From Candidatus Bathyarchaeota archaeon (GTDB lineage: Archaea > Thermoproteota > Bathyarchaeia > Bathyarchaeales > Bathycorpusculaceae): a DNA stretch of 64,000 nt. The stretch's first letter is position 1. Every line of letters starts with the position of its first letter. The stretch is taken from the NCBI GenBank assembly GCA_963768425.1, contig CAVYHV010000008.1, positions 64,001 through 128,000 on the forward strand, in the 5' to 3' direction. This document shows, piece after piece, positions 7,388 through 56,925 of this stretch. A program made the position numbers and the translations under genes. The notes under the pieces were generated by a model. That model did no database searches and was not told where the DNA came from. It saw only the letters and a list, made by a program, of their open reading frames with translations.

Positions 7388-7956
7388 TCACCCTTGAAGA
7401 AGTACGTAAAAGAGCCGAAGCAGACGCCAAAACCTATGGATACTTCCTTACTCCTCAACCGGATCTGCTTCAAGGTTTTCTTGAAGGATTAAAGACGAAT
7501 GAAGACCGCTACGGCTACCCGCTGTGTCCATGCAGACTCACCTCAAACAACTTCGAATTCGACCGCGATATCATCTGCCCCTGCGACTACCGTGACCCAG
7601 ACGTCGCACAATACGGCTCATGTTACTGCCGCCTCTACGTCAACAAACAAGTGTACGAAAGCAAAAACCTGCCAGAAGTCCCGGAGCGAAGACCACTAGA
7701 CAAGCAGGCAAGAGCATACGGATCTCAAACGGGCGCCTCGGCTAAACCGACAACAGCGGGAGTAGACCAAAAGAAACCCCCCACGGCATCGCCGGAAGTA
7801 GGGAAAGCTCAGCCTACAGTCAAAAAGAAGCTATGGTATTGCAAACAATGCGGTTACGTGGTTTTCAGAGAGGACCCGCCATACGTCTGCCCTATATGCA
7901 AGGCGAAAAAGGAATTATTCGCGGAAATAGAGAGTTCAGTGGAGTTCAAGGGCTAA
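7384..7956 (+). CDS. ferredoxin:thioredoxin/disulfide reductase catalytic subunit fused to a rubredoxin-like domain
   Basis: CPC, CPC, CYC motifs plus CKQCG/CPIC. Confidence 0.9.
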   Translation: MITLEEVRKRAEADAKTYGYFLTPQPDLLQGFLEGLKTNEDRYGYPLCPCRLTSNNFEFDRDIICPCDYRDPDVAQYGSCYCRLYVNKQVYESKNLPEVPERRPLDKQARAYGSQTGASAKPTTAGVDQKKPPTASPEVGKAQPTVKKKLWYCKQCGYVVFREDPPYVCPICKAKKELFAEIESSVEFKG

Positions 7957-15842: not shown

Positions 15843-17324
15843 ATGAAAATAGTTCTCATAAATCCGCCGCAGACATTTTATCCAGGCTCGGAACCACCCG
15901 CTGGCAATCTGCCTCTCGGATTAATGTACATCGCCGCAATGCTTATCAAATCAGGTTACCAAACCGAGATTTTTGATGCTTTCATGGCTGACGGTTTATT
16001 CCAAAGAAACGGCGAAACCGTAAACGTAGGCATGTCATTCGAGCAGATAAAACGTGAAATTGATAGTCGAAAACCCGATATTTTAGGAATAGCGGGGCCG
16101 TTCACTTGCCAAATAGAAAACTCGGTTAAAATTAGCGATTTAGCTAAACAGCTTAATCCAGACATTTTAACGGTTGTAGGTGGTCCTCATGTCACTACTG
16201 TCCAGAAGGGGTTTCTGGAAGAGGCAAAAAGCGTTGACATCGCTGTAGCAGGCGAAGGCGAATACGTCATGCCTGAAATAGCAGCCTTTTTTGAAGGAAA
16301 AAAGGCTTTAAATGAAATTCTAGGCATTGCCTTTCGCCAAAATGGAGAAGTCAAAGTAAACCCTTCGAGAGATTTCATCAAAAATCTGGATGATCTTCCT
16401 TACCCAGCCTATGACTTAGTTGACATGGAGAAGTACCTGAATCCCAAAAAAATAGGCTACCGAAGCTTCAGAAAACGAGCCATATCAATGGTAACCAGTA
16501 GAGGCTGCCCGTTCAACTGCTGCTTCTGCTCAGTTCACCTTCACATGGGCAAGGGGTTCAGAGCACACTCTGCAAACTATGTCTTAAACCACATCCAATA
16601 TGTGGTTGAAAAATTTGATGTCAAGAACATTTTCTTTGAAGACGACAACTTAACCCTTGACTTGGCAAGGTTTGAAGCGATCTGTGATGGGTTGATTATG
16701 AAGAAAACTGCGATTGGTTGGGAAACCCCAAACGGCGTACGTGCTGACTGTTTAGACTTGAATTTGCTGAAGAAAATGAAGAAGTCAGGTTGCAAAAGCG
16801 TCTTTTTTGGAGTTGAGTCAGGCGACCAGCAGATACTAGATAACGTAATCTGCAAAAACTTAGACCTAAATCGCGTAGTTGAAGTTGCGAAAATCTGCAA
16901 AGACATTGACCTGAAAACGGGTGCCTTCTACATCATTGGTTTTCCAGGCGAAAAGAAAGAAAACATGCAGAAAACAGTTGATTTCGCCCTAAAACTCAAA
17001 CGGGATTATGACGTTGGTATGCACCTTTTCATGGCTACACCCTCGTACGGAACAAGACTGTACGAAGAATGCAAGTCTAAAGGATATATTCAGGAAAACT
17101 TGGGCTGGAACTCCTTTGCAGCGGCTCGTCAACCGAAAGGAATGCCTCTGATTTCCACGCCGGATTTTGCCCCTGAAGAAGTGAAAGAAATCGCTGCTAA
17201 GGCGCTTGAAGAATATAAAAAATTGTCTTTGAGGAATCATCTTAGGAATCCTCAGAGGGCTTTGAAAACGGCTTTTGAGCAGCCGCAGCTCATTTTGAAA
17301 TACATCAGGAATCTTTTCGCCTAA
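15843..17324 (+). CDS. cobalamin-binding radical SAM protein (class B)
   Basis: PLGL.YIA, VGGPH, GEGE, TSRGCPFNCCFC, FEDDN, GVESG, GFPGE. Confidence 0.9.
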   Translation: MKIVLINPPQTFYPGSEPPAGNLPLGLMYIAAMLIKSGYQTEIFDAFMADGLFQRNGETVNVGMSFEQIKREIDSRKPDILGIAGPFTCQIENSVKISDLAKQLNPDILTVVGGPHVTTVQKGFLEEAKSVDIAVAGEGEYVMPEIAAFFEGKKALNEILGIAFRQNGEVKVNPSRDFIKNLDDLPYPAYDLVDMEKYLNPKKIGYRSFRKRAISMVTSRGCPFNCCFCSVHLHMGKGFRAHSANYVLNHIQYVVEKFDVKNIFFEDDNLTLDLARFEAICDGLIMKKTAIGWETPNGVRADCLDLNLLKKMKKSGCKSVFFGVESGDQQILDNVICKNLDLNRVVEVAKICKDIDLKTGAFYIIGFPGEKKENMQKTVDFALKLKRDYDVGMHLFMATPSYGTRLYEECKSKGYIQENLGWNSFAAARQPKGMPLISTPDFAPEEVKEIAAKALEEYKKLSLRNHLRNPQRALKTAFEQPQLILKYIRNLFA

Positions 17325-17621: not shown

Positions 17622-19983
17622 TTGCTAATTGCATTGATGTCTATAATCCTAATTCAAGCCTTTGATATGTCGGTGGCTTCAGGCAGCTCAGTTAGCACAG
17701 GTTCCAGTAGCGGCGGGTGGCCGATGTTTCGTCAAGACCCAAGCCACAGCGGCTACAACCCGGACACACCCTCAGCGAATTCTGCCCAATTGCTGTGGAA
17801 TTACTCAACTGGCAGGATGGTGCAGTCCTCCCCATCTTTTGCACAAGGCTTTGTCGTTGTGGGCTCACGAGACAGCCAAGTTTATTGTTTCAACGGTTCC
17901 ACCGGGGAAGTAATCTGGAAGTACCCAATCAGGTACGAAGTATGGTCCTCCCCAGCAATCTACGATCAATGCGTCTACGTCGGCGCCGACGACGGGTACC
18001 TTTACTGTCTTGACATTGAGACTGGGCATCCACTTTGGCGGACATTTGTCGGCGGCGAAGTACGGTCTTCCCCTGCAGTCGTCGGCGACATTGTCTACGT
18101 GAGTTCGCATAGTAACCTATGCGCCTTGAACGCTACAAACGGGAAAACGATTTGGAGTGTTCAAAACTTGAACCCAATTGATTCTTCGCCTGCAGTTTCA
18201 AACGGAGCAGTGTACATCGGCAGTGCCGACGATTGCGTTTACTCTTTTAATGCGTCCACAGGGCTCCAAATTTGGGTTCACCCACTTAGGACGTCTGACG
18301 CTTCTTCTCCCGCCGTCAACAACGGCATCGTTTACATTGGCTCTTACGATGGCTACATGTACGCCCTAAATGCTTCCACAGGCGCACAGGCTTGGAAGTA
18401 CCAGACAGCCGATGAAGTGGAATCTTCTCCAACAGTCGCTTACGGCTGCGTTTACTTTGGCTCCGACGACAACAACGTCTATTGCCTTAACTCGTCAACG
18501 GGGAGCAAAATCTGGCAGAGCGCAACCGGATATTGGGTAACATCTTCTCCGGCAGTCGCAGGCGGTAACGTTTACGTGGGCTCCCAAGACGACAACATCT
18601 ACTGTCTAAACGCCACAACAGGCGCCAAAGAATGGCTTTACCTGACAGGAAACATTATAGAATCATCACCTGCAATCGCAAACAACACTTTATACATCGG
18701 TTCAGACGACAGCAAAGTCTACGCCTTAGCCTTGACTAACGCGGCGGGTCAACTCACGGTTTCGCAACCTTCCAACCCCATATTTCTAACCACTATCGTG
18801 TTTGACGCCATCGCATGCACCATTGCCGCCTTTGCGGTTTTTGCAGTTGCTCGTTACGTTTACTTTTCTCGACGGCAGAACCGAAAAGATGAACCAAGAG
18901 ACGATTCAGAGAAAAATCTTTCCTGGCTTCAGAGGCACGCTGACGCCGTTTTCATTTTGGGGATTTTGGCTTTTTCAATGATCTTCTTCATTAACTTGGG
19001 GAGTGGCGTTCTTCAGACTTCTGATGAGCAAACGTATTCTCAATGGGCTTATCATATGTTAAAAACAGGGGATTATTTGACGCCTTGGGCTGACGGCGCC
19101 ATATCATTCGTGATTGGGAAGCCTCCATTGTTGATGTGGCTGATGTCTCTTAGCTACCAGGTTTTCGGCGTCACAAATTTTGCCTCTAGGATTTGGAGCG
19201 CAGGATTTGGTGCCTTGTCCTTGGTTATTATTTACTTTTTGGGAAAGAAACTCTATAATCGTCCAGTCGGATTCGTGTCGGCTCTCGTGTTGGGCACCTT
19301 CCTAACCTACTTCGTTTTCGCAAGGTACGCAATGACCGATGTCCCTTTAACGTGCTTCGCGGTGGCAAGCATATATTTCTTCGTTCTAAGCGAAGGGAAA
19401 GAAAATGTTGTTCGAAACGCGGTTTTTGGTGGCTTGTTTTTTGGGTTGGCGCTGATGACTAAGCAGCTCGCTGCCTTGTTGATTCCGCTAATCGTAGTTG
19501 CTTACTTGGTTGCAACGAGAAAGAGCCTGCGCTTTCTCTTCACGAAAGCTTTCAATCTCTTCTGGAGTGTTGGTATTTTGCTTTTTTCGCCTTGGCTGAT
19601 CTACATGGCCGTCCGTTTTGGGAATCAGTTTTGGCAGTGGTACTTCATCTACGCTGACGTAACAAGGTCAGCTGGCACTCTTGAGGGTCACTTTGCAGGC
19701 TACCTCTTCTACTTTAACTTCTTAGTCGCATAACGAAAACTGGCTTTGGTTAGCTCTTCTACCCATCGCCGTGGGGCTGTGTGCATACAACACTTTCTTT
19801 AGGCGCTTAAAACAGGATACACTGATTTTTCTGTGGATGGCAATCGTGCTGCTAGTGTTCTTGTTTGCACAAACAAAGATTTACTGGTATATAATGCCCG
19901 TTTTTCCAGCTTTCGCCATCGCCATTAGCAGCCTATTATACCAGCTTGCGAGCAAGATACGGCTTTTGCTTCGTCGCAAATAA
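17622..19983 (+). CDS. PQQ-like beta-propeller fused to a GT-C (ArnT/PMT, GT39-like) glycosyltransferase; frameshift near 19730
   Basis: WPMF and repeated SSP.V....VY.GS.D...Y.LNA.TG..W blades; then DE..Y...A, KPPL..WL, RIWSA, LMTK multi-TM domain. Confidence 0.8.
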
Positions 19984-20799
19984 TGGATTTTTAGCATATG
20001 CAAATTTTTGTTTTGATAGATAAATTGAAGTTAAGCGAATCCCGAGGATTTGTGTTAAGCATCGCTTTCCTTTTTCCCAGTAGTAAAGAAAAAGGTCTTT
20101 TACCCAGTTATGGAAGACAGAGTCAGTGCCGTAGAAGCCTGAATAGTCCATTTTTCCGTCAATTTGACGCAAGCATACACCTGCATATTTCTCGGTAAGG
20201 GCGACTATTCCGGGAAGGTCAGATAACCCCCGCAGTTCAACGTTTCTCTGCGCAACAGGCGGGCTTGCCGCTGCTACATTTTGCATTGGGATAAGCATTT
20301 TTATCTGAATTCCAGCCTCCACCTTCCTATTCATAATAGGAATCATGTACTCAGGAATCGTGCCTTCGCCTATTGCCCAAATGTATTGGGTCGCTTCAGT
20401 AAACCACTTTGAACCCTTATTCAAGCTTTCTATCGTGTCCATAAGCAACTCCGCCTTTGAAAGCTCGCTTACCCTGCTCACGAACTGGCTCGGAAACTGC
20501 GTTAAATCATGTGTCGAAAAATAGCTTTTATACTTAAAGATAAAATCCAGCGACTCTGAAATCTGAAGCACGATTTTGCCGAACTCTGCAAGAGCAAAAG
20601 CGCCGTCAGGTTGTCTATGAACCAGTGAAGCTGCACCTAGCCGTTCCAACTGCCGAAAAGCCTCTGTTGGGGTGACATCGAGTCTTCGGGCGATTTCCTG
20701 CATCTTTAGGTTTTCACCTCTTAATTCTCTTAAAATACTCAGGCGACTTCCGCTGGCAAGTTCAAAAAACAATTTTTCGAGTCCAGAATCTCTGCTCAT
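19936..20799 (-). CDS. winged-helix transcriptional regulator (COG4742-like); true stop probably ~20055
   Basis: FFELAS..RL.IL wHTH; C-terminal FHNW..DLFLYYWE. Confidence 0.8.
   Translation of the reverse strand: MSRDSGLEKLFFELASGSRLSILRELRGENLKMQEIARRLDVTPTEAFRQLERLGAASLVHRQPDGAFALAEFGKIVLQISESLDFIFKYKSYFSTHDLTQFPSQFVSRVSELSKAELLMDTIESLNKGSKWFTEATQYIWAIGEGTIPEYMIPIMNRKVEAGIQIKMLIPMQNVAAASPPVAQRNVELRGLSDLPGIVALTEKYAGVCLRQIDGKMDYSGFYGTDSVFHNWVKDLFLYYWEKGKRCLTQILGIRLTSIYLSKQKFAYAKNPLFATKQKPYLARKLV
20031..20043. repeat. half-site of the tRNA-linked palindromic repeat
   Basis: TTAAGCGAATCCC is the reverse complement of GGGATTCGCTTAA at 29952-29964. Confidence 0.5.
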
Positions 20800-20908
20800 T
20801 CTTCCACCGTGTACTGAGTTTTTTGCTCCAATGCTTACTTCTAAGCACCTGAATCAAATAAAACTAATCACAGTTAGGAAGGATTAAAGTTACCTGAGGA
20901 GAAATAAT

Positions 20909-21163
20909 ATGGGAAATATCAAGGAACGTGTGTTCTCAATTGAACTGAAGGCGAGAAGACACCTCAAAAACATCAGTTTAACCAACGGCTCGTTCGATTC
21001 AGTGCTAGTTGAAGGCACCTTAGGCGAGCTAGTGCAAGCCAGTTTCAAGGAAGGCGTAATTCTAGAAGTTATCGGCAAAAATGGCACTCTGAGAATAGAC
21101 CTCACGGAAGACGAAATCAGCAAAACAGCAGAACAAACAATAATCGAGGCAGAAGCACCATGA
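20909..21163 (+). CDS. hypothetical protein
   Basis: 84-aa ORF with GAGGAG RBS, overlaps the next gene. Confidence 0.7.
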   Translation: MGNIKERVFSIELKARRHLKNISLTNGSFDSVLVEGTLGELVQASFKEGVILEVIGKNGTLRIDLTEDEISKTAEQTIIEAEAP

Positions 21164-21930
21164 CTAAGACATCAGTCACCGTTGACGCGAGATGGAAAAG
21201 CCTCTATCGAATCGGCGCAATAGCTGCCTTGGTTGCCGCATTGGGTTTCCGAAGAAACATGGGTGCAGAAATGACAATGTTCTTTGGGGCAGCACCGAAA
21301 ACTGCGGCTGGCTGGTTCACGCTGCTTCAGAACAACAGTTTACTGGGGATAATTTCCCTCAACTTTTTTGACATCATTGACTACGCTCTGGTCGGCATCA
21401 TGTTTGTAGCTCTCTACGTTGCGCTCAGAAAAACCAGCCGAATTTTCGCGGCAATAGCCACCTCAATGTGTTTAACGGGAATAATTGTTTACGTTGTTTC
21501 AAGCACATCATTCAAAATGCTTTCCCTCAGCAACCAATACACCAGCGCCTCGACAGCCACGCAGAAAACAGCTTTGCTGGCAGCTGCGCAAACAGTGCTT
21601 GCAAAAGGTGTCCCTGGCGCTGGCTACCAAGGCGTAGGCGGCGTAGTCAGCATGTTTCTCATTGCTATTGCTGGCTTAGTAATATCGGTTGTAATGCTTC
21701 GGAGCAAAATCTTCTATAGAATAACGGGTTACGTGGGAATCATGGCAAGCGTCTTTGACTTGGCTTACCTCATGGGCGTCGGGTCTGTGCCATCGGCTAG
21801 TTTCAATCTGTGGTCCAGCATCTTCGTAGGCGGCGCAGGGTTACTGTTGATGATTTGGCACCTTCTTGTAGGGATAAAACTGTATAATATTGCTGGGCAA
21901 TCGAAGGTCAAAGGTGGTGATACCCAATGA
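21160..21930 (+). CDS. DUF4386-like membrane protein
   Basis: About 6 hydrophobic helices; operonic overlap. Confidence 0.6.
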   Translation: MTKTSVTVDARWKSLYRIGAIAALVAALGFRRNMGAEMTMFFGAAPKTAAGWFTLLQNNSLLGIISLNFFDIIDYALVGIMFVALYVALRKTSRIFAAIATSMCLTGIIVYVVSSTSFKMLSLSNQYTSASTATQKTALLAAAQTVLAKGVPGAGYQGVGGVVSMFLIAIAGLVISVVMLRSKIFYRITGYVGIMASVFDLAYLMGVGSVPSASFNLWSSIFVGGAGLLLMIWHLLVGIKLYNIAGQSKVKGGDTQ

Positions 21931-22481
21931 GTAAAGCACTTATTGTTTTCGGCACTCGCTACGGCGCAGCAGCCAGCACGTCAGAAGAGATCGCAAAAAT
22001 CATGCTCCAAAAAGGCTTCAAGGTCGATTTGAGAGACGCGAAAAAAGAAAAAGTCAAGAGCATAGCTGAATATGACCTCATCGTCGTCGGCAGCGGAATC
22101 CAAATTAACAGGTGGACAAGCGAACCTGAAGACTTCCTTAAGAAATTTCAGAAGCAACTTGCAACTAAGAAGGTGGCGCTCTTCGTCTGCTGCGGCTCAG
22201 CCTCTGATAAAAGTAAACCTGAACTGGCTGTAAATGCGAAACGGAAGTATCTTGAAGAAAAAGCTGCCAAATACAATCTGCAACCTGTCGCGTTGGGCTT
22301 GTTCGGAGGAATCTACAACTACAACAATATGCCTTGGTTTGCCAAAAAAGCAATGAACGCAGACAGACCCCGAGTAGAAGCCGCCTACAAAGAAACAGAA
22401 CCCGGAATCTATGACACAAGAGACCTCAACGCCATCCGAGCTTGGGCAGAAAAACTTGCCGATATTCCAAACTTCGCGTAG
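21927..22481 (+). CDS. flavodoxin-domain (HemG-like) protein
   Basis: FGTRYGAA..., YD.IVVGS.I, LFGG, DTRD...IRAWA. Confidence 0.8.
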   Translation: MSKALIVFGTRYGAAASTSEEIAKIMLQKGFKVDLRDAKKEKVKSIAEYDLIVVGSGIQINRWTSEPEDFLKKFQKQLATKKVALFVCCGSASDKSKPELAVNAKRKYLEEKAAKYNLQPVALGLFGGIYNYNNMPWFAKKAMNADRPRVEAAYKETEPGIYDTRDLNAIRAWAEKLADIPNFA

Positions 22482-22547
22482 AGACTTTTAATGGTGAAAA
22501 TCGTGAAACTCAGCGCTGGTTAGACGAGAAATGAAGTTGAACGGCCG

Positions 22548-22892
22548 CTAAGGCAGGGTTTCGCCCCATTGCCGAATTGCCTCAAAGACAGGAAGAAACG
22601 TCAAACCCTGCTCGGTTAAAGTGTACTCAACTCTGGGCGGTACCTCAGGATATACTGTCCTCGTGACAATTTTACTTTTTTCAAGGTCTCTGAGATGCTT
22701 CGTGATGGTTTTGGAGTTCACGTCGCCCATTCTTTTTTGCAGTTCGCTAAAACGCAGTGTCCCGTCCTTAAGGCTCCAGATAATGAATAGGTTCCATTTG
22801 CTGCCGATTATTCCAAGCACACGAACAAACTTCAAATGTGCTTTATTTTCAGATTCCAAGACAATCCACCTATACTTACTTATTGGAAACAA
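22548..22892 (-). CDS. HxlR-family transcriptional regulator
   Basis: IGSKW...I...L..GTLRFSEL...LRDLE...R..YPEVPPRVEY.LT. Confidence 0.92.
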   Translation of the reverse strand: MFPISKYRWIVLESENKAHLKFVRVLGIIGSKWNLFIIWSLKDGTLRFSELQKRMGDVNSKTITKHLRDLEKSKIVTRTVYPEVPPRVEYTLTEQGLTFLPVFEAIRQWGETLP

Positions 22893-22962
22893 TGTTACTA
22901 TTAGACTTCTGGCGTATTTTAATATTGCTGGTGAATAAAGTAATCATGTCTAAAGAGATAAA

Positions 22963-23655
22963 ATGGATAGTGGTGCAAAAATGAAAGTGCTAGCTATAAA
23001 CGGAAGCGGCAGAAAACATTGGAACACGGCAATTCTGCTGAATAAAGCCCTTGAAGGCGCAGCGTCGAAAGGAGCCCAGACAGAACTCATTCACCTATAC
23101 GACCTTAATTTCAAAGGATGCACAAGCTGCTATGAATGCAAGCTAAAGAATGGGGCATCATTTGGCAAATGCTCCGTTAAAGATGAATTATCAGTTGTGC
23201 TTGGCAAGATTGAAGCGGCTGACGCGCTAATCCTCGGGTCGCCTATTTATCTGGGAACGATACCTGGCGTAATGAAGTCGTTTCTGGAGCGTTTGGTGAC
23301 CCCTTACATGGGTTTAGACGCCGACGGTGACCTAGTTTCCCTCTTCCCGAGACAAATACCGACTGGGTTCATTCATACCACGGGAGGCGACGAAAACCAC
23401 CTGAAAGCTATGGGAGTTGAAAACCACATCAGAAGCAACGAAATGATGATGAAAATGGTTTTCGGATCGGTGGAATCACTCGTCGTTTCGGATACACTGC
23501 ACGTTGACGACTACTCAAAGTACGCTATGCCTTTTGACGCCGAAGAAAAAATGAAGAGGAATAAAGAAGTGTTTCCTTTGGACCGTGCGAAAGCGTTTGA
23601 AATGGGAGTTAGCCTTACCCAGGAAAAGTCGGTCCCAAAGGAGCAGGCGGTTTAG
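22963..23655 (+). CDS. iron-sulfur flavoprotein / NADPH-dependent FMN reductase family
   Basis: INGS.R..NT, CTSCYEC...C...D, GSPIY. Confidence 0.85.
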   Translation: MDSGAKMKVLAINGSGRKHWNTAILLNKALEGAASKGAQTELIHLYDLNFKGCTSCYECKLKNGASFGKCSVKDELSVVLGKIEAADALILGSPIYLGTIPGVMKSFLERLVTPYMGLDADGDLVSLFPRQIPTGFIHTTGGDENHLKAMGVENHIRSNEMMMKMVFGSVESLVVSDTLHVDDYSKYAMPFDAEEKMKRNKEVFPLDRAKAFEMGVSLTQEKSVPKEQAV

Positions 23656-24513
23656 GTGAGCGTTGACATTTACTATTTCTCAGGCACAGGCAATTCACTG
23701 GTAGTCGCCAGAGATATTTCACAAAAAACTAATGGAAAACTGGTATCCATGCCTTCGGTCATGAGTAAAGACAGAATTGAAACCGATGCCCAGGTGATCG
23801 GAGTTGTTTTTCCAATTCAGGGAATGTTCCGCGTTCCGTCTATAGTCGAGAGATTTGTTGGGAAACTGGATGGCGTTAGTTCAAAGTACATTTTTGCGGT
23901 CACCACATTCGGAAGCATGCCGGTCTGGGTAATCAAAAGATTTCGCAAAGTGGTCGAATCTTGTGGCGGCAAGCTTTCAGCAGGTTTCGCAGTACACATG
24001 CCAATGAACAACATCACTCTTCCCTCATTCACGTACAGCGGAGAAGTTGGAAGTAAAGAACAGAAGTTATTTGCAGACTGCCGCGGCAAAGTCAATTTTA
24101 TTTGTGAATACGTAAACGCCCGAAAGGAAGGCAAATTTGAAGCATCCAACAGGCTGTTCCTTTCCCTGTTTTATCCTGTTGACAGAATATATGGGCGATG
24201 GCGAATCGAAAGCAAATACAATAAACTTAAAAACTCACATCTCACCCAAGACGAGCTTTTTCCTCTGATGGATGTCAGCTTCCACTCTGATGAGAAATGC
24301 GATGGCTGCGCAATTTGCTCAAGAATCTGCCCTGTTGGCAACATAAAAATGGTTGTTGGTCAGCCCGTTTGGCAGCATCACTGTGAACGGTGCATGGCAT
24401 GCTTGCAGTGGTGTCCGAAGGAAGCTATAGAATTTGACCATGATTCGATTGGCAGAAAAAGGTATCATCACCCAGATGTGAAGCTTTCAGACATGTTGAC
24501 GGTTAAGAACTAA
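23656..24513 (+). CDS. EFR1-family flavodoxin-ferredoxin
   Basis: YFSGTGNS plus two CxxCxxCxxxCP motifs and RYHHP. Confidence 0.88.
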   Translation: MSVDIYYFSGTGNSLVVARDISQKTNGKLVSMPSVMSKDRIETDAQVIGVVFPIQGMFRVPSIVERFVGKLDGVSSKYIFAVTTFGSMPVWVIKRFRKVVESCGGKLSAGFAVHMPMNNITLPSFTYSGEVGSKEQKLFADCRGKVNFICEYVNARKEGKFEASNRLFLSLFYPVDRIYGRWRIESKYNKLKNSHLTQDELFPLMDVSFHSDEKCDGCAICSRICPVGNIKMVVGQPVWQHHCERCMACLQWCPKEAIEFDHDSIGRKRYHHPDVKLSDMLTVKN

Positions 24514-24675
24514 CAATACAAATCGAGAAAAGCACAATTAAAGAATAAGTGCTATGAGCGAGAGAATGGATAATATTTCTGGCGAAAGAGTTAATATTCA
24601 CATATTTCCTCGAATTTGACTTTAAAAGGCGCTAATTGTGTTAAACAAGTTTCATTTTTCGATTAAGTAAAAGGT

Positions 24676-24717
24676 TGGCGTCCCGCTGGGATGCGTTTAA
24701 ACTATTAAGCGGATCCT
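24676..24717 (-). repeat. tRNA-3'-end + palindrome repeat, copy A (att-like)
   Basis: tggcgtcccgctgggatgcgtttaaactattaagcggatcct. Confidence 0.8.
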
Positions 24718-24956
24718 GAAGGAATAGCGGACTGAAACCTTTTCTGACATGAACAAAGTGAGCCGAACCGGGAACTTACTCCAAAGGGTTCAGAACCTTA
24801 ATAATATGTCAGAAACGCCAAAGGTTCCTTTAAGTGCTGACTGATACCTACATTTGGTTAGAAACTCAACTGGTTACTTTCGTTGTTAATTCGGAATGCA
24901 ACCACACCATTTTTATTTCACTTAGGAAAGTAGCCTATCGTTGAGGATGCTGATTT

Positions 24957-27792
24957 ATGACTACACAAAATAATCCTAATTATGCGGCGGAACCAAAAAC
25001 CATCAAAATACCTCCAGTTTACTTATATCTCTTCTCTGAAGGGGATGGAAAAAACAAGAAACTTTTAGGAGGTAAAGGCGCCGGTCTTTGCGAGATGACC
25101 CAGATTGGTTTACCGGTTCCCCCAGGGTTCGTGATAACAACCCAAGCTTGCCTCGAGTATTTTGATGGCGGCTTCAAGCTGCCGAAGGGACTTGCGGACC
25201 AAGTTAGGCAGGCGATGTCTCAGCTGGAGAAATCCATGAAACTGGGCTTTGGTGATTCTGAGAAGCCGCTTCTGGTTTCCGTCAGAAGTGGCGCGGCAAT
25301 TTCAATGCCCGGCATGATGGATACGGTCCTCAATTTGGGACTCAACGACGAGACCGTCCTCGGACTAATCAAGAGAAGCGGAGATGAACGCTTCGGCTGG
25401 GATTCGTACCGCCGATTTATCTCGCTTTTTGGCGAGATCGTGCTGAAAATTAACAGTGACCTTTTCCACAATGCGATGGAAGCCCTGAAGAAGGAAAGGA
25501 ATGCGGCATATGACATGACCCTTTCTTCGTTCGACCTTCAGGGGCATGTTGAAACTTTCAAGCGTATAATTGAGGATAACGTTGGCAAACCTATCCCGAA
25601 TGACCCATATGAGCAGCTATTTATGGCTATAGAAGCGGTGTTTGCCTCTTGGAATGGAAAGAGAGCTGTAGATTATAGGCGTGAATTCAAAATCACACCT
25701 GAGATTGCTAATGGCACTGCGGTGAACGTACAGGCGATGGTTTTTGGCAACGTTGGTGAGCATTCTGCGACTGGAGTAGTTTTCACGAGGAATCCTAGCA
25801 CCGGCGAAAACGTGCTTTTTGGAGATTACTTAGAGCGGGCGCAGGGTGAGGACATTGTGGCCGGTATTCGAACTCCAAAGCCCATCCTTGAGATGAAACA
25901 GGCCATGCCCGAAGTTCATCGGGAATTGTTGAAGGTTCGGGAGACGCTTGAGACGCATTTTCGGGAAATTCAGGATATGGAGTTCACGGTGGAGAATGGG
26001 AAGCTGTTCATGCTTCAGACCCGTTCTGCAAAAATGAACATTGCAGCTGGGATGAAGACCTCGGTTGACTTGGTTAATGAAGGCTTGATTACGAAGGAAC
26101 AAGCACTGACGAGGCTTGATGCAGCCCAGCTTACTCAACTGATGTATAGCCAAATAGACCCGGAAAACAAAACTCCGCCCGTTACGGTTGGGTTGGGGGT
26201 TTCGCCCGGCGCCGCTTCTGGCGAAGTAGTGTTTGACGCAGATGAGGCTGAGCGGCAGAGCAAGACGCACGGCAAAAAAATTATCCTGCTCAGAGAGCAA
26301 ACTAAGCCTGAGGATATTCACGGTTTTTTCGCGGCGCAGGGCATCCTGACCACTGTTGGTGGGAAGACGAGTCACGCCGCCGTCGTTGCTAGGGGTATGG
26401 GTAAGCCATGCGTAACCGGAGCAGGGGGCATCAAGATTAATGCCGTAGACGAAGAGCGCGACGATTGGCGACCACAAAATCATTCAGGGTGATGTTATCA
26501 CGATAGATGGCACTTCTGGCAAGGTTTGGCTGGGTGAGGTTTCGATGGTGGAGCCAGAATTCTCAAAGGATATGAACACCATCCTGAAGTGGGCAGATGA
26601 GTTCCGCAGATTGGGAGTGCGAACGAACGTGGATACTCCGTCTGACGCGGCGAAGGCGCTTAGGTTCGGGGCGGAAGGAATTGGTTTGTGCCGCACGGAA
26701 AGGATGTTCAACGCTGCCGACCGAATCGGGATATTCCAGGAGATGATTTTGGCTGATTCGCCCGAGGATAGGGCTGCTACCCTGCGGAGGCTTCAGCCTT
26801 TGCAGAAGGAAGATTTCAAGGCCATGTTGAGGGTGATGCAGGGTTTCCCGGTCACAATACGGCTTCTTGATCCGCCGCTCCACGAGTTTCTGCCGTCGGA
26901 AGAGGAGATCCAGCGGCAAATCGACGTGTTGCAGAAGAGCAAGGTTGCTCTGGATAATGTTTGTAGGTTGCCAGAGATTCTTCGAACTTTAGACCCGCAG
27001 CTTGAACCATTCCTCACCGGGGATCAGCAAATGCTGAACAGTCTGGCGCGGCTTCAGAAGTCCGAGCTTGACAAGAAGCTGGAAACTCTCCAGAAGATAC
27101 GCGTCTTGAAAGAAGTTAATCCGATGCTGGGTCACCGCGGCGTAAGATTAGGAATTACTTACCCTGAAATCTATGAGACCCAAGTGGAAGCCATTCTTGA
27201 AGCGGCTGCAGAGCTTATCAAGGAAAAGGTTGCGGTTAAAGTGGAAATCATGGTTCCGAACGTCTGCACTGCAGAGGAACTGAAGCGGGTGGAGGAACTC
27301 ATCAAACGCGTCGAGCAGCAAGTCACTGAAAAAACTGGCGTAATCGTTCCGTACAAGTTTGGCTCAATGATTGAAGTCGTTAGGGCTTGCATGCGTGCCG
27401 GGAAACTGGCTGAGATGGCGGAGTTTTTCAGTTTTGGGACTAACGACCTGACTCAGGCAACGTTCAGCTTTTCGAGGGAAGATGCAGAGAACAAGTTCCT
27501 TCCGCTTTACAATCAGTTGAAGATTTTGCAGGATAACCCCTTTGAAATTCTGGACGTTAAGGGTGTTGGGCGACTGATGTCTATAACTGTGGAGTGGGGG
27601 CGAAAGAGCCGGCCCAATTTGGAGATAGGGATATGTGGCGAGCAAGGCGGTGAACCTTCTTCTATAGAATTTTGCCATGCTATAGGCTTGGATTACGTCA
27701 GTTGCTCACCCTATAGAATTTCTATTGCAAGGTTAGCTGCGGCGCAAGCCGCCATTAAGGAGAAAAAGGGCGAGCTAAAACAGTTTAAATAA
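24957..27792 (+). CDS. ppdK: pyruvate phosphate dikinase, frameshifted near 26460
   Basis: LLGGKGA, VSVRSGA..SMPGMMDT, GG.TSHAAVVAR phospho-His, GIGLCRTE, SFGTNDLTQ, GICGE. Confidence 0.97.
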
Positions 27793-27876
27793 CACTCCTG
27801 ACAAGAATTATTTCTCCATTTCTTGCTTCAATATTTTAGTTAGCGTAAGATTTCTTGGAAAAATGATTGAATCCAA

Positions 27877-27919
27877 TGGCGGGCCCGCTGGGATGCGCTT
27901 AAATAATTAAGCGAATCCT
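27877..27919 (-). repeat. tRNA-3'-end + palindrome repeat, copy B (att-like)
   Basis: tggcgggcccgctgggatgcgcttaaataattaagcgaatcct; reverse strand ends ATCCCAGCGGGCCCGCCA. Confidence 0.85.
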
Positions 27920-28677
27920 CAACGCACTTAATTTTGAGTTGCCTCAGGTGCACCTTGGTCACCAACCCAAATTGAAAATCTGCCACATATCGGTTTTTCT
28001 ATTCGGTTAGCTTGCGCCGTATTAGTGTGAATTGCCGTCATTTATGACAAGTCGGGTTCTTGTTGGCATCTGGACAAACCTCAGCGGTTTGCTGTGTGTC
28101 CTCTTTAGTAATCTCCAAAGCATCGTCTCAGGACATATTACATTTCTGTTACTTGGGAGGCGCCCTAGCCGTTCGGATTACTTAGAACTAAATCAGGCTC
28201 AACATCGGGATTGCTTCAGAAACTGGCTCCCCAAACTTTCGCTAAATGATGAGCCACATATTCAGCCGCGTCCAGACAAACAGACTCTCCCTAACCTTAT
28301 CAAGGAAAGCTTGTTCTCGACAAACCGATAAGAATCTTTCAACTGATCAATAGTTTCTTGAGTTTTAGGTTTTCTTCTGCAGTGTTTATGTGTCATACTA
28401 ACAAGCCGCACTCCCAACTTTTGGATGAAGAGGGCGAAGAATGAAACAAAGTGGAGCTATCGCTAGCCGCCTAATATCGAACGCAGTAAATATAGCCACT
28501 TTCTTAAAAAAATTATTTGTTACGTCTTTTATCCCATGCAGGCGCGATTCATCAGAAGCATGTAAGTATTTTAATTGATGTCTAAACAGATGTGTTTCGA
28601 CAACTTTTTGATCAATTTTCATTAACGATCTAGTTTAAAAGACCCTTCTAACTACTGCATTATTAAGCGATGTTTTT

Positions 28678-29085
28678 ATGAGTAAAAAATTTAAAACTGT
28701 AAAGCAAAAAGTGATTATTAATGCCTCTCCCCAAGAAGTTTATGACGCCTATATTGACCCGAAAAAACGCAGCGAATTCACAGGATACAAAGCTACGGGT
28801 AAACCAGTGGTCGACGGCAAATTCACGGGTATTGACGGGCACATTTATGGGAAACTCCTTGAGCTTGAGGATGGAAAACGCTTAGTTCTAGAATGGACTT
28901 CTACCGATTATGATTATGGTCCTTCAAAGTTAGAGTTATGTTTCAACAAAGTGCCTGCAGGAACAGAGCTTGATATAGTAATTTCGGATGTTCCAGAAGA
29001 CCAAGCAGATGAAGACGCCGATGCCTGGACACAGTATTGGTGGGACCCACTGAAAAAGTACTTCAGCGATAAATCCAAAGCCTAA
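28678..29085 (+). CDS. SRPBCC/AHSA1-domain protein
   Basis: ASPQEVYDAY.D....FTG...G.F...W..YWW.PLK. Confidence 0.85.
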   Translation: MSKKFKTVKQKVIINASPQEVYDAYIDPKKRSEFTGYKATGKPVVDGKFTGIDGHIYGKLLELEDGKRLVLEWTSTDYDYGPSKLELCFNKVPAGTELDIVISDVPEDQADEDADAWTQYWWDPLKKYFSDKSKA

Positions 29086-29408
29086 TTGACCAGTCAGTTA
29101 AGCCGAATTAGGCAACCCGCATTTCTTGTTCTCTATGTATCTATCTTTGGCTATGATTAAGAAGATCGTGGCTGGAACAGCAAGCAACAATATCAGCGAT
29201 ATAAAAATGGCCCATTGCATTGTTGAATTGAGACAAAAAATGATACTGATTGTTACGGTCCAATAACTTCCCCAACATCAATTTTGATATTCTTTCCTTG
29301 CAAATTAAGAAGGAAGGATAACAGGAGTTTGAGTGTACCGCTGCTAAACGCTTATTTCCATTTTCACACGGCACATTCGATTCCCATCAAACAACCTCTT
29401 GATTGCAA

Positions 29409-29926
29409 TTAGCGCATCACGACTCCAAGATCATTTGCAGGCTTCACCCCAAATTTCTATAGCAAAGGATGTGAGCGCCCAATGCCAACCACTCTGCTCT
29501 GCAACGTACTCCCAAATTCCTTATCTAAGCGTTTATTCCTTCTCAGGATGCGGCGACTAACTTGGTGACGAGTAACCTTGAACTTCACAAGCTTTAAAGC
29601 TAAATCTTTCGGTAACAAGCCAGGCGAACCTTACTCAAAGAGCAAGCATAATTTCTCGGTCAACCTTATCGTCACAGGATATGCGCTCAATAATTGATTG
29701 GTCAAAACTGAAAGAGACCTTCAAGCCAGCAAAGATAGTACGGAGCATAGCTTGACCTCTTCAACCTCGAGCTAAGGTTTGTTTAAGAAGCTGCTGATTA
29801 TACTTCAAACGCCCAATCTTATTGCTCTGATTACGCTTCTTTTGGAGTTTTTAAACGTTATTTTGACACAAACTGCAACGGTTTCAGCCGCAGTCTGCCC
29901 AGCAATGGTTTTTCAGAGACAGCCAT
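29409..29926 (-). pseudogene. degraded HTH DNA-binding gene of a mobile element
   Basis: Broken frames give KIGRLKYNQQLL...CDDKVDREI...GLLPKDLA...TRHQVSRRI...NKRL...VAEQ.GWHWALTSF. Confidence 0.55.
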
Positions 29927-29938
29927 CCGTTTTCTAAA

Positions 29939-29981
29939 TTGCAGGTCTAGTGGGATTCGCTTAAACTATTAAGCAAATCCT
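29939..29981 (-). repeat. tRNA-3'-end + palindrome repeat, copy C (degenerate tRNA part)
   Basis: ttgcaggtctagtgggattcgcttaaactattaagcaaatcct, 45 bp from the tRNA 3' end. Confidence 0.75.
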
Positions 29982-30026
29982 AAACCAAAAGTAAACAAAA
30001 GCCCAACTTTAACATTACAAAGATAA

Positions 30027-30103
30027 CGGGCTCGCTGGGATTTGAACCCAGGATTCTCGGCTCCGGAGGCCTGATGCCTTAATCCGTGCTAGACTACGAG
30101 CCC
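30027..30103 (-). tRNA. tRNA-Arg(CCG)
   Basis: GGGCTCG/CGAGCCC acceptor stem, anticodon loop CTCCGGA, GGGTTCAAATCCC T-arm; one apparent extra base in the anticodon stem; no encoded CCA. Confidence 0.9.
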
Positions 30104-30147
30104 ACACTTCATCAAACCAAACAATCCAGTAAATTTAAAGTAGCCGT

Positions 30148-44080: not shown

Positions 44081-45048
44081 ACACCAGATACTCGCCTTAT
44101 AGAACAAATACCCAAAATAGCCAAAGTGCTTGAAAACTTGGAAGCATTAGGCAAAGAACAAACAACAAGAAAAACCTACAAGAAACTACTTTTAAGATTA
44201 GCCAACAAAACAGACCTAAACGAACCAAACCAAGTCAACCTTGCAATAGCACGATTCAAAAAATTCAACCGCGCAAACAGGCAAAGACACAAACAAAGAC
44301 GTAACCAATGCATACAAAGACCGACTAATATCAGCCTACAAAACCTACGTTGAATACTATAACATACAAAATTGGAAGCAGCCCTATTACACCCCAGAAG
44401 ATAAAGGCATCCAGCCACCAAATGAGGAAAAAGTAAAATTCTTAATAGCAACAGCCAAAGAACCCCTAAACATAAAAATAATGATAATAGGAGAAACAGG
44501 ACTAAGACCAAAAGAAGTCACAGGCACAAACGGACTCCAAGTAAACGACATCCACAAAGACACAAAAACATTAACCGCAAGAAGCCTGAAAGGATGCAAC
44601 CCAAGACCACCAATGCCAATAAGCGACGAACTACTAACAGCACTAAACAAACTACGTAACAAAACACAACCTAAAAGGCACAGACCTATTATTCACAGGG
44701 AATACTCAGAAACACTATCAAACCATTTTTACGACCACAAGATAACTTTTAGCGAAAAGACTAAACGACCCAACAATAACTCAAATAAGACTCTACGACA
44801 TCCGACACTACTACATAACAAAGAAAGTTAGAAAACTACAAAACATAGAAATAGTAAGACAAATCACAGGACACAAAAGACTAAACACACTACAAAGATA
44901 CATCCACATAGCACTAAACCAAACAGGCGAATGGATAATCAGAATAAACCAACGACAAAGAAAGAGTCAGATGCAACTCCTAAAGGAAGATTTTACTTAT
45001 GTAATAACAACACCAGACGGATACATGAAATTCAAAAAACCAAAATAA
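44051..45048 (+). CDS. int: tyrosine recombinase/integrase, C-terminal part (several frameshifts)
   Basis: ETGLRPKE (Arg), LKG (Lys), RLYDIRHYY, GHK, QRYIH (Tyr) across frames; frame open from the att site. Confidence 0.85.
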
Positions 45049-56845: not shown

Positions 56846-56925
56846 TGGTGCGGTCGCCGGGATTTGAACCCGGGATCATTAGCTTGGAAGGCTAATGTCC
56901 TAAACCAGACTTAGACGACGACCGC
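56846..56925 (-). tRNA. tRNA-Gly(TCC)
   Basis: GCGGTCG acceptor stem, TTAGC-CTTCCAA-GCTAA anticodon arm, GGGTTCAAATCCC, encoded CCA. Confidence 0.93.

Follow-up and report, generated by a model that had tools for sequence, protein, structure and literature searches.

Modules ending in a 28-bp palindrome and a tRNA-Arg tail, stacked at tRNA-Arg 3' ends in a genus of Bathyarchaeia

Introduction

Accretion of islands flanked by attachment (att) sites at one RNA gene is described for the streptococcal arrays that integrative and conjugative elements (ICEs) form with cis-mobilizable elements (CIMEs) and for the tandem ssrA islands of Dehalococcoides, and in the accounts given there the mobilization of CIMEs by an integrase in trans is the accepted model (PMC5704250, PMC3146451). 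A comparable arrangement is found in a stretch of 64,000 nucleotides from a Candidatus Bathyarchaeota genome (assembly GCA_963768425.1, contig CAVYHV010000008.1, positions 64,001 to 128,000 of the forward strand; hereafter the window), where modules are stacked downstream of a tRNA-Arg(CCG) gene and end in sites that fuse a 28-bp palindrome to a tRNA-like tail. Like CIMEs as these reports present them, the blocks have no integrase, lie in tandem and have direct repeats of a small RNA gene's 3' end at their boundaries; unlike them, they belong to an archaeal genus, their target is an isoacceptor family (four tRNA-Arg genes) and they carry the palindrome at one or both block ends. No autonomous element with the same ends was found among the loci of a candidate integrase family of the genus (0/42) or on viral contigs, where the single match is unrelated. 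The direct repeats of tRNA 3' ends typical of CIMEs are present (18 bp in one genome, G102; tails matching 11/11), and they enclose no integrase or excisionase except for one decayed fragment in another genome (G108). We propose, at a probability of roughly 55%, that these are integrase-less, att-flanked modules of a genus-specific family that integrate at tRNA-Arg 3' ends by means of a recombinase acting in trans. Genomes, contigs, fetched loci and sequencing runs are denoted below by G, C, L and X numbers; G000 is the window's own genome, which is 91% complete.

Integrons provide the second point of comparison. Their attC sites measure 57-141 bp and are imperfectly palindromic, with R''-L''/L'-R' boxes and extrahelical bases. 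As in integrons and in clusters of attC sites lacking integrases (CALINs), modules are captured serially at one entry point and each ends in an imperfect palindrome, and arrays with no integrase nearby are common there; in the window every module ends in a site (C, B, A or D), and in a related locus (L227) the newest entry lies proximal to the platform. Unlike integrons, these arrays have no IntI and no attI beside an integrase, the 28-bp palindrome is without attC-type R and L boxes, a module has one gene or several, in both orientations and with its own regulators, and the entry point is a duplicated tRNA 3' end. An earlier note on this DNA, made from the sequence alone, had proposed integron-like accretion; taken to mean an integron proper, that proposal fails on the missing IntI and attI, on a palindrome that is not attC and on multi-gene modules in both orientations. 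Integrons and CALINs have been reported in archaeal metagenome-assembled genomes (MAGs), in passages that mention neither Bathyarchaeia nor tRNA or palindromes (PMC9668308). The modules work like CIMEs or integron cassettes and belong to neither family; nor do they qualify as casposons, dif modules or IS200/IS605 elements. A literature search returned no description of the motif or of tRNA-Arg-anchored modules in Bathyarchaeia, and matched the 12-nt arm string only to unrelated plant text, which is not proof that no description exists.

Repeat sites in the window

The composite repeat is ~45 bp long and is present in three copies of the same orientation (sites A, B and C; Table 1), as the earlier note had observed downstream of tRNA-Arg(CCG). 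Analysis of repeat families confirms them, and the degenerate pattern given in that note matches the window at these three palindromes alone, with an expectation of 0.00 in 100 dinucleotide-preserving shuffles. On the minus strand all three are laid out alike, with a 12-N4-12 palindrome (28 bp) followed by a tRNA-like tail: GGATCCGCTTAA-TAGT-TTAAACGCATCC and then CAGCGGGACGCCA at site A, GGATTCGCTTAA-TTAT-TTAAGCGCATCC and then CAGCGGGCCCGCCA at site B, and GGATTTGCTTAA-TAGT-TTAAGCGAATCC and then CACTAGACCTGCA at site C. The letters of the palindrome can fairly be described as those of a T-arm into which 16 nt have been inserted. The claim that the repeats run into a tRNA 3' end also stands, with a correction as to which tRNA: the tail of site B, ATCCCAGCGGGCCCGCCA, is the exact 3' end, encoded CCA included, of a tRNA-Arg(GCG) gene on another contig (G000:C25:29981-30058), and not an exact match to the adjacent tRNA-Arg(CCG), which ends CGAGCCCG and encodes no CCA. 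This tRNA is the sole Rfam match at E<=1 between 24.5 and 30.2 kb.

Site B is the homologue of the outermost site in two related genomes (G101 and G103), and site C together with its spacer makes up an old mini-unit kept in relatives. A half-site had also been noted at 20031. An exact match is indeed there (12 bp), but it is the right arm of a truncated full site (site D): a complete palindrome with its tail lies at the homologous position, beside a MarR-like gene, in G104 (L084/L109), and a peat-metagenome contig (run X1) likewise has a full site at D. That contig is aligned as "goes back 4658" because the best match of its left part is copy A. In the window genome the remnant falls inside the extended 3' end of a MarR-like open reading frame (ORF) at 19936-20799.

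Complete units at tRNA-Arg genes

Co-oriented pairs of palindromes 1.5-4 kb apart occur in several genomes; five of these loci were fetched (L223-L227), and L049, with a unit of 1.47 kb, has the same build. A complete unit runs from the tRNA-Arg 3' end through 2-5 nt, a palindrome, 1.5-4 kb of cargo and a second palindrome to a repeat of that same tRNA's tail. In L224 a tRNA-Arg(GCG) gene ending ...CAGCGGGCCCGCCA is followed by TT, the palindromes with 3.9 kb between them and CAACGGGCCCGCCA; in L227 the same tRNA end, ...CAGCGGGCCCGCCA, is followed by TC, a 3.3 kb unit and CAGCGGGCCCG; and in L226 tRNA-Arg(TCG), ending ...CACCGGGCCCG, is followed by TTATA, a 2.7 kb unit and CACCGGGCCCG again. 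The remaining two read ...CATCGGGCCCG-TTATT, a 2.4 kb unit and CATCAGACCCG (L225), and ...CAGCGGGCCTG...-TT, a 4.0 kb unit and CAGCGGGCCCG (L223). The tail repeat matches the resident tRNA 11/11 in L226 and L227, 10/11 in L223 and L224 and 9/11 in L225, and is isoacceptor-specific (CAC, CAG or CAT). Judged by the ends of these five units, the flanking repeat starts with the T-loop ATCC, whose four letters also close the right palindrome, and reaches the discriminator, or the CCA if this is encoded.

The same correspondence extends to ten further loci with a tRNA-Arg gene and a downstream site, where the distal tail equals the tRNA 11/11 in six (G101, G102, G103 and three of G108) and 10/11 in two (G105 and window site B) and is degenerate in two; L105-L107 and L145-L147 have 11/11 tail repeats. 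In other sub-types the palindrome begins 27 or 45 nt after the tRNA 3' end instead of 2-5 nt. Within a pair, both palindromes are copies of one asymmetric site, in direct and not in inverted orientation. Cargo varies from unit to unit and includes PQQ propellers, an ABC transporter with PadR, FtsX/ABC fragments, phosphofructokinase and unknowns, the units of 1.5-2.7 kb holding single metabolic genes such as phosphofructokinase or parts of an ABC transporter.

Occupied, empty and rearranged loci

An empty and several occupied versions of one locus can be compared at the tRNA-Arg(GCG) gene next to PhoU_div, CofD and MoaE. On G000:C25 the tRNA lies 112 bp from PhoU_div with no palindrome, and inserts are present in G102 (4.2 kb), on G000:C11 (2.3 kb) and in G105 (7.2 kb); C25 and C11 are only 76.5% identical, so that the pair within G000 is a comparison between lineages and not between two strains of one species. 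The G102 insert is bracketed on both sides by the 18-bp repeat ATCCCAGCGGGCCCGCCA, and its distal copy is preceded by a palindrome and followed by CT, as is the tRNA itself where the site is empty.

At the window locus the flanks are kept in G101 and G103, on one side as far as a radical SAM gene (window 10.2-17.3 kb) and on the other as the tRNA and 30.0-34.8 kb. The DNA between the radical SAM gene and tRNA-Arg(CCG) differs in its genes and in its length (G000, 12.7 kb; G101, 7.9 kb; G103, 7.1 kb). The outermost site in G101 and G103 has ~125-170 bp of conserved non-coding DNA on its island side, as has window site B, and homology with G101 restarts at 27874, the outer edge of site B; window 17.3-27.87 kb is therefore extra DNA outside B relative to these two genomes. 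The two sides of site D each adjoin a full site in G104, with different partners: PQQ/PMT and a site on C7, a site and the MarR module on C57, where homology begins at 20031, within site D. The expectation that gene content changes exactly at the repeats is thus borne out at site B, at site D and in the G102 insert, and breaks down beyond site C, as discussed below.

The order of insertion can be read at L227, where the 3.3-kb unit lies between tRNA-Arg(GCG) and CTATCATTGTAATGTTAAAGTTGGG...TTTTGGCTTA with its C-like palindrome. This module of spacer and C-like palindrome directly follows the tRNA in the window, in G101 and in G102, and the L227 unit precedes it, so new units enter at the tRNA and displace older ones outward. 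Serial capture at one tRNA, as first envisaged, therefore holds as regards accretion at the tRNA but not as regards a single target, since all the tRNA-Arg isoacceptors (GCG, CCG, TCT and TCG) are used and modules or flanks have moved between loci. Peat metagenomes add, besides the full site at D, variants with a 2042-bp skip (22607->24650) and a 455-bp skip to the right of B; none of the sequencing runs contains more than 0.18 of the sampled words, and at 22.6-24.5 and 28.7-29.6 kb cover was scant or nil in most of four runs, from which nothing follows.

Palindrome and site classes

All fetched loci together yield 111 unique sites, each of which was oriented by its tail. The largest class (69/111) consists of the palindrome and a tRNA-Arg tail, defined by at least 9 of 12 tail positions and with the consensus C-A-[G/C/T]-C-G-G-[G/A]-C-C-C-G-C. 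In 17 sites a tRNA 3' end or trailer is followed by the palindrome and then by TTTTGA or TTTCGA, five have another conserved tail, CATCTATCCCAAACC, and the remaining 20 are degenerate or of other kinds. An intact tRNA-Arg gene (GCG, CCG, TCT or TCG) was located by ARAGORN 2-45 nt upstream of the palindrome in 10 loci.

The left arm of the palindrome, GGATTCGCTTAA, is nearly invariant, and the right arm has two main forms, TTAAGCGCATCC, mostly ahead of tails, and TTAAACGAATCC, mostly straight after tRNAs. The central 4 nt vary (ATAA 19, TAGT 19, TATT 8, TGTA 7), and the whole can also be read as 11-6-11, GGATTCGCTTA-ANNNNT-TAAGCGAATCC. Among the 69 sites with tails, mismatches are fixed at two pairs, T.C at pair 5-24 in 44/69 and C.A at pair 8-21 in 17/69, and a compensatory double change occurs once. 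Folding of the hairpin against shuffles gave z values of -3.2 (B), -5.0 (C) and -1.2 (A). With its sequence conserved, its mismatches fixed and one compensatory change in 69 sites, the palindrome looks like a protein-binding site in duplex DNA with two slightly different half-sites, and not like a hairpin kept by base pairing. The folded single-stranded sites proposed in the earlier note find no support in these same counts.

Distribution of the motif

A relaxed pattern finds a fourth clean copy in G000 (C19:1253), for a total of four clean and at least four degenerate copies, each with a tRNA-Arg-like tail or near a tRNA-Arg gene; the reversed-pattern control gave 0. One degenerate copy (C14:89240) lies 9 kb downstream of tRNA-Arg(TCT), in the same orientation and with that tRNA's CACCGG tail, another (C11:10207) is found 2.3 kb downstream of a gene resembling tRNA-Arg(GCG) that escapes ARAGORN, and others are at C18:25505 and in a half-site cluster at C10:87.3-87.5 kb.

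Beyond G000 the motif is present in 23 of 60 sampled congeners, at 1-7 copies each and with 0 matches to the reversed pattern throughout; it is missing from 37 of the 61 genus genomes (G000 included) and from all 100 sampled genomes of the family (98 of other genera and 2 congeners). A scan with the exact pattern over one genome per prokaryotic species returned 92 stretches, and 77 of the 80 with titles are MAGs of Bathyarchaeota or Bathyarchaeia; each of the remaining three is a lone contig, with Thermoplasmata, Nanoarchaeia or Clostridia in its title, and the Clostridia one has different arms. The one stretch found among the viral contigs of IMG/VR also has different arms and is unrelated. 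By these counts the motif is a patchy, genus-level feature and not a general operator. It is almost always linked to tRNA-Arg genes, of the isoacceptors GCG, CCG, TCT and TCG, so that the dispersed operator or terminator unrelated to tRNA loci, which had been named as the outcome that would overturn the proposal, is not what the scans of this genome and its relatives reveal.

The tRNA-Arg(GCG)-like gene on C11 (L112:~7745-7864) is itself unusual in having ~50 extra nt after the 5' acceptor strand, possibly a non-canonical intron. With introns allowed, ARAGORN finds 34 tRNA genes in all of G000.

Search for a recombinase

Which enzyme, then, could move such modules? Pfam searches of the 23 ORFs of the window island (15.8-36.5 kb) returned no integrase, and those of the 23+25+37+42+25 = 152 ORFs in modules and flanks returned no tyrosine or serine recombinase and no Cas1; the only mobile-element genes among the 152 are two DDE transposases of insertion sequence (IS) type (L115:3709-5169 and L146:12509-13411). 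The earlier statement that the island has no integrase is upheld by its 23 ORFs and by whole-genome scans for PF00589 and PF00239. Serine recombinases (PF00239) gave 0 matches in G000, and its five PF00589 genes all lie far from the sites. By eye, among the matches listed for the 61 genomes, no PF00589 position adjoins a palindrome, the nearest being kilobases away. Queries with 10 integrases (tblastn) matched, among all the loci, only L028 (linked to tRNA-Pro), L145 (linked to tRNA-Gly), L141 and a remnant in L146. Clustering of the 319 ORFs within 2 kb of sites revealed no recurrent recombinase-like, nuclease or DDE family, and the commonest neighbours there are PAS histidine kinases (9 loci) and ABC ATPases (6). 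Cas1 (PF01867) is found 0 times in G000 and in 28/60 congeners, never beside a site, and is missing from G108 and G162, which have 6 sites each.

Of nine tyrosine recombinases tested, none reaches the XerA equivalog cut-off (best 152 vs 220 bits, from a truncated ORF at a GC-rich contig end), and no tested protein reaches the cut-off for integron integrases (best 146.9 vs 265 bits). A candidate for an enzyme in trans is a family of tyrosine integrases of ~480 aa at tRNA 3' ends, which is present in 42/61 genus genomes, and some of its members adjoin tRNA-Arg(TCG/TCT) or precede tails of the tRNA-Arg(GCG) type. An integrase in G130 (C59) was set aside as a candidate, as it belongs to tRNA-Gln. 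A cassette with a homing nuclease was likewise rejected: in G000 LAGLIDADG_3 is found only in an intein-like open frame of 626 aa on C20 and LAGLIDADG_1 not at all, and no nuclease recurs near sites. An IS200/IS605 derivative was rejected because the hairpin GCTCGCCTCGGAAGAGGCGAGT of the three Y1 elements of G000 is unrelated to the palindrome.

The three Y1 elements are minimal IS200-like elements of 546 bp (Y1 transposase only) with a conserved end hairpin (L229, L230 and L231, at G000:C29:96248, C27:868 and C12:36671). In the window, 44653-44913 (+) encodes a weak tyrosine-recombinase fragment (PF00589, E 1e-4, one internal TAA), 12 kb downstream of tRNA-Gly(TCC) at 56846-56925 (-), which possibly marks a further decayed island's far end. 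The last ~4.7 kb of C30 (L141:13200-17902) are GC-richer and hold the truncated recombinase of Xer type (196 aa; 152 bits against the XerA model), which is the best PF00589 match of the genus sample among the matches listed; this contig end is possibly foreign DNA or chimeric.

Proposed mechanism and alternatives

On the account that we favour, the repeats would be the right-end joints of modules. A complete module has a palindrome at each end, and its right palindrome abuts a second copy of the last 11-15 nt of the same tRNA, from the T-loop ATCC through the discriminator, with CCA where encoded. An unlinked site-specific recombinase, most likely a tyrosine integrase, would join a circular module to the tRNA-Arg 3' end. 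The circle junction would consist of the right palindrome, the tRNA-tail core, 2-5 nt and the left palindrome; the core, ATCC-CAGCGGNCCCG, is the predicted crossover region, and the palindromes on either side may be duplex binding sites for a dimeric protein, be it the recombinase or an accessory factor. Repeated insertion at the tRNA-proximal core would give stacked modules, which would then be shuffled and truncated as cores of different tRNA-Arg loci recombine and as DNA from palindrome to palindrome is deleted. The sequences themselves show the anatomy of the sites, their linkage to tRNA-Arg, the comparisons of occupied and empty loci and of variable content, the order of accretion and the lack of a recombinase in cis. 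A more ambitious version, which we put forward tentatively as rather unlikely, is an independently built archaeal platform for gene capture, integron-like, in which all tRNA-Arg 3' ends would serve as entry points, chromosomal genes would become mobile once capped by a palindrome and a tRNA tail, and a single unlinked recombinase of unrecognised kind would shuffle them among the four tRNA-Arg loci and between strains of this peat-soil genus.

Several observations weigh against capture by an enzyme in trans. No circular junction or excision product was seen directly, and the palindrome-core-palindrome junctions present in L014, L049, L055 and L098 can equally be tandem joints. The genus is rich in enzymes that cut and join at tRNA-Arg 3' ends, and none of them is tied to the palindrome; G000 itself is without a member of the ~480-aa integrase family at E<=1e-10. 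Two associations that seemed promising did not hold up, and the search for integrases adjacent to the motif that the earlier note had advised leads to none tied to it. The one is a decayed integrase C-terminus, 14 nt from tRNA-Arg(TCT), within a 3.9-kb island of G108 that closes at its far end with a palindrome and tail: as a key to the cognate enzyme it fails, the palindrome being found in 0/42 of the relatives' loci (+-10 kb, up to 5 mismatches). The other is an intact integrase element 22 nt from a palindrome on G120:C6, which has a 98%-identical twin in C5 without a palindrome, and because of this twin the adjacency probably arose by secondary insertion. Tails in agreement with the resident tRNA on both sides are as compatible with a true target-site duplication, by a transposase-like mechanism, as with an att core. 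Beyond site C, homology with G101 and G102 extends 230-470 bp past the repeat, and not every synteny break lies at a repeat. The tail of site B is of the GCG type at a CCG locus, with a 1/11 mismatch to the resident tRNA, and G105 has the PQQ/PMT gene natively beside a 3' end of the tRNA-Arg(GCG) type; given the tail and trailer of B and this placement, the window stack needs at least one exchange between tRNA-Arg loci and not simple serial insertion. Finally, a joint in run X6 leads from the trailer of site A (to 24678) to the tRNA 3' end (30027), with or without other letters between; it would be the state before the A-to-C block entered, and is a hint to that effect with a short side of 25 nt.

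Archaeal elements with tyrosine integrases of the SSV and pNOB8 types resemble the modules in inserting into a tRNA gene's 3' part, which comes to be directly repeated, and differ in carrying an integrase, split or intact (PMC8371274), which is absent here. A reading of the joint as a split integrase gene of the SSV type was rejected: in the sequence as read, the palindrome-core-palindrome junction is closed by stop codons in all six frames (TTAA motifs), so that the joint cannot lie inside a split int gene. The modules might nonetheless be relics of self-mobile integrative elements (plasmids or proviruses) that have lost the integrase, the palindrome being a leftover attP arm and nothing being mobile in trans today. 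The decayed integrase in the palindrome-delimited G108 island, the abundance of tRNA-targeting integrases in the genus and the many degenerate or truncated sites (site D, the tail of site C, the copies on C10, C11 and C18) speak for such decay, which we consider unlikely in view of at least 12 different cargo sets with the same two ends and no integrase or fragment except in G108, of units down to 1.5-2.7 kb with single metabolic genes, of the 0/42 loci of that integrase's relatives and of one unit inserted ahead of an older one (L227). Casposons leave duplications of 14-15 bp at tRNA 3' ends, and the modules share with them the tRNA 3' targets, flank repeats of ~14 nt, repeated ends and tandem arrays. 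They might accordingly be non-autonomous transposons moved by a casposase-like or other transposase in trans, with the palindromes as terminal repeats and the 11-15-nt tail repeat as target-site duplication. Complete units do have a palindrome at both ends, and a transposon-like mechanism keeps some standing because both flanking copies carry the isoacceptor bases of the resident tRNA (11/11 in L226 and L227 and in 6/10 further loci). Against this, Cas1 was found neither in G000 nor beside any site, the palindromes are direct and not inverted copies, the Y1 hairpins are unrelated and no DDE family recurs near sites, which together make a transposon distinctly improbable.

The palindrome has, in its 11-6-11 form, the architecture of dif as these reports give it, with two 11-nt inverted arms and a 6-nt spacer in 28 bp (PMC2958812, PMC8371274), and could be the crossover site of a housekeeping Xer recombinase with the tRNA tail as a passenger. 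The dif modules of Acinetobacter and the integrative mobile elements exploiting Xer (IMEX) are, as described, likewise accessory modules between 28-bp 11-6-11 sites without a recombinase of their own (PMC6449649, PMC13141974); unlike the sites here, theirs alternate in orientation and resemble the host dif, whereas ours are co-oriented, fused to a tRNA tail and variable in the spacer (the host dif was not identified). A chromosomal dif would hardly be missing from 37/61 genus genomes; sites that would need to recombine with one another have different central 4-6 nt; the joint of palindrome and tail stays the same and the tail changes with the resident tRNA, so that exchange falls at or beyond the palindrome edge; and the nine recombinases tested fall below the XerA cut-off. 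An Xer system is, for these reasons, very improbable. A folded, attC-like single-stranded site, its fixed mismatches acting as extrahelical bases, would agree with the hairpins of B and C (not A) that fold better than shuffles and with the conserved mismatches 5-24 and 8-21, and is yet harder to credit with no covariation (one double change in 69 sites), with 28 bp against the length of attC and with no IntI-type integrase near any array examined. Least probable of all is a terminator or operator native to tRNA-Arg loci and without any DNA mobility: the T-run after left-end palindromes directly behind the tRNA (17 sites) is what a terminator would have, but 69/111 sites carry a displaced tRNA tail remote from any tRNA, the DNA bracketed by sites is variable, the tRNA-Arg(GCG) and (TCG) genes of G000 are without a palindrome and most congeners lack the motif.

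The Bathyarchaeia, uncultured archaea that cycle carbon in peat and sediments, are abundant, and gene exchange among them is little known. The palindrome with its tRNA-Arg tail is a sequence-defined mark by which accessory modules can be found in metagenomes, by which insertion polymorphism can be tracked in time series and which offers a handle for finding the recombinase; the module cargo found with it comprises sensor kinases, ABC transporters, redox proteins, pyruvate phosphate dikinase (PPDK), phosphofructokinase and catalase. If an enzyme in trans does act on a 28-bp palindrome beside a tRNA tail, this would be a second, independent solution to cassette capture besides integrons, and a compact site-specific tool from archaea. 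Were the modules dead relics, the sites would still explain why synteny breaks cluster at the tRNA-Arg genes of the genus.

Modules and flanks of the window

From the tRNA outward, the stack of ~12.7 kb consists of the C mini-unit, the AHSA1 module, the PPDK module, the redox/regulator module, the truncated site D and the PQQ/PMT segment (Table 1). Module B-C is homologous to loci L105, L098, L046 and L107, and the homologue of module D-A adjoins a full site on G104:C57. The PQQ/PMT homologues of G104 and G105 are followed by a full palindrome and tail, and the segment is missing at this locus in G101 and G103. The GC content of the PPDK and PQQ genes is 0.50-0.54 vs 0.40-0.46, which is not decisive.

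Table 1. Coordinates of the repeat sites, modules and flanks in the window.
Feature	Position	Strand	Description
Anchor tRNA-Arg(CCG)	30026..30104	-	3' end CCCAGCGAGCCCG, no encoded CCA; ARAGORN; Rfam RF00005, 45.4 bits
45-nt spacer, tRNA to site C	29981..30025	-	Kept beside tRNA-Arg genes in G101, G102, G164
Site C	29937..29985	-	Palindrome 29953-29980 and degenerate tail CACTAGACCTGCA; homologous loci L081, L059, L045
Site B	27875..27923	-	Palindrome 27891-27918 and GCG-type tail with CCA, continuing into a tRNA-Arg(GCG)-type trailer
Site A	24673..24721	-	Palindrome 24689-24716 and tail CAGCGGGACGCCA, then a trailer apparently found beside the tRNA itself in a related strain
Site D remnant	20031..20060	-	Right arm TTAAGCGAATCC (20031-20042) and degenerate arm-like stretch; left arm and tail deleted
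Module B-C	27919..29936	.	Conserved non-coding ~125-170 bp (27919-28042) and AHSA1/SRPBCC gene 28678-29085 (+); Pfam
Module A-B	24722..27874	+	PPDK in two ORFs, 24957-26492 and 26545-27792; Pfam
Module D-A	20043..24672	.	MarR/HVO_A0261-like regulator (-), 84-aa ORF, DUF4386, flavodoxin, HxlR (-), FMN reductase, 4Fe-4S/flavodoxin-like gene; Pfam
Outermost variable segment	17325..20030	+	PQQ-propeller/PMT_2 gene 17622-19733; Pfam
Conserved left flank	15843..17324	+	B12-binding radical SAM gene; end of synteny with G101, G103

The split of the PPDK ORF is caused by one extra base near 26452. Contigs of peat runs X1, X4 and X6 are without that base, so that the split is either a mistake of the assembly or a private frameshift. 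G000 also has an intact second paralogue of PPDK (59% identical) at G000:C8:214254-215672. As a travelling cassette PPDK was rejected, nine loci of relatives having no palindrome within 1.5 kb upstream, the side that was covered.

Additional observations

Two non-coding stretches beside site B (27919-28042 and 28364-28511) are 74-80% conserved in G101, G103 and three other loci, and the island genes around them differ; they have no Rfam match and are possibly an element end or a small RNA. The PQQ/PMT gene contains four tandem 120-nt repeats at 18182-18636, which are beta-propeller blades.

Near the palindrome on C19 (L115:1366-3189) lie a regulator of the Fur family and a catalase in two overlapping ORFs, likely a frameshift, followed by a DDE transposase of the IS4/IS5 type. 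A multi-copy "269-aa ORF" beside this site proved to be an antisense artefact of a PCNA gene. At least four copies of the PCNA-like gene with ~1.1 kb of DNA exist, at 96-98% nucleotide identity (L115:62-841, on G000:C19; G000:C14:16418-17492; C18:29725-30676; C8:204332-205196); two of them lie at contig ends, and they may be a repeated mobile segment with a sliding clamp or a set of collapsed strain variants.

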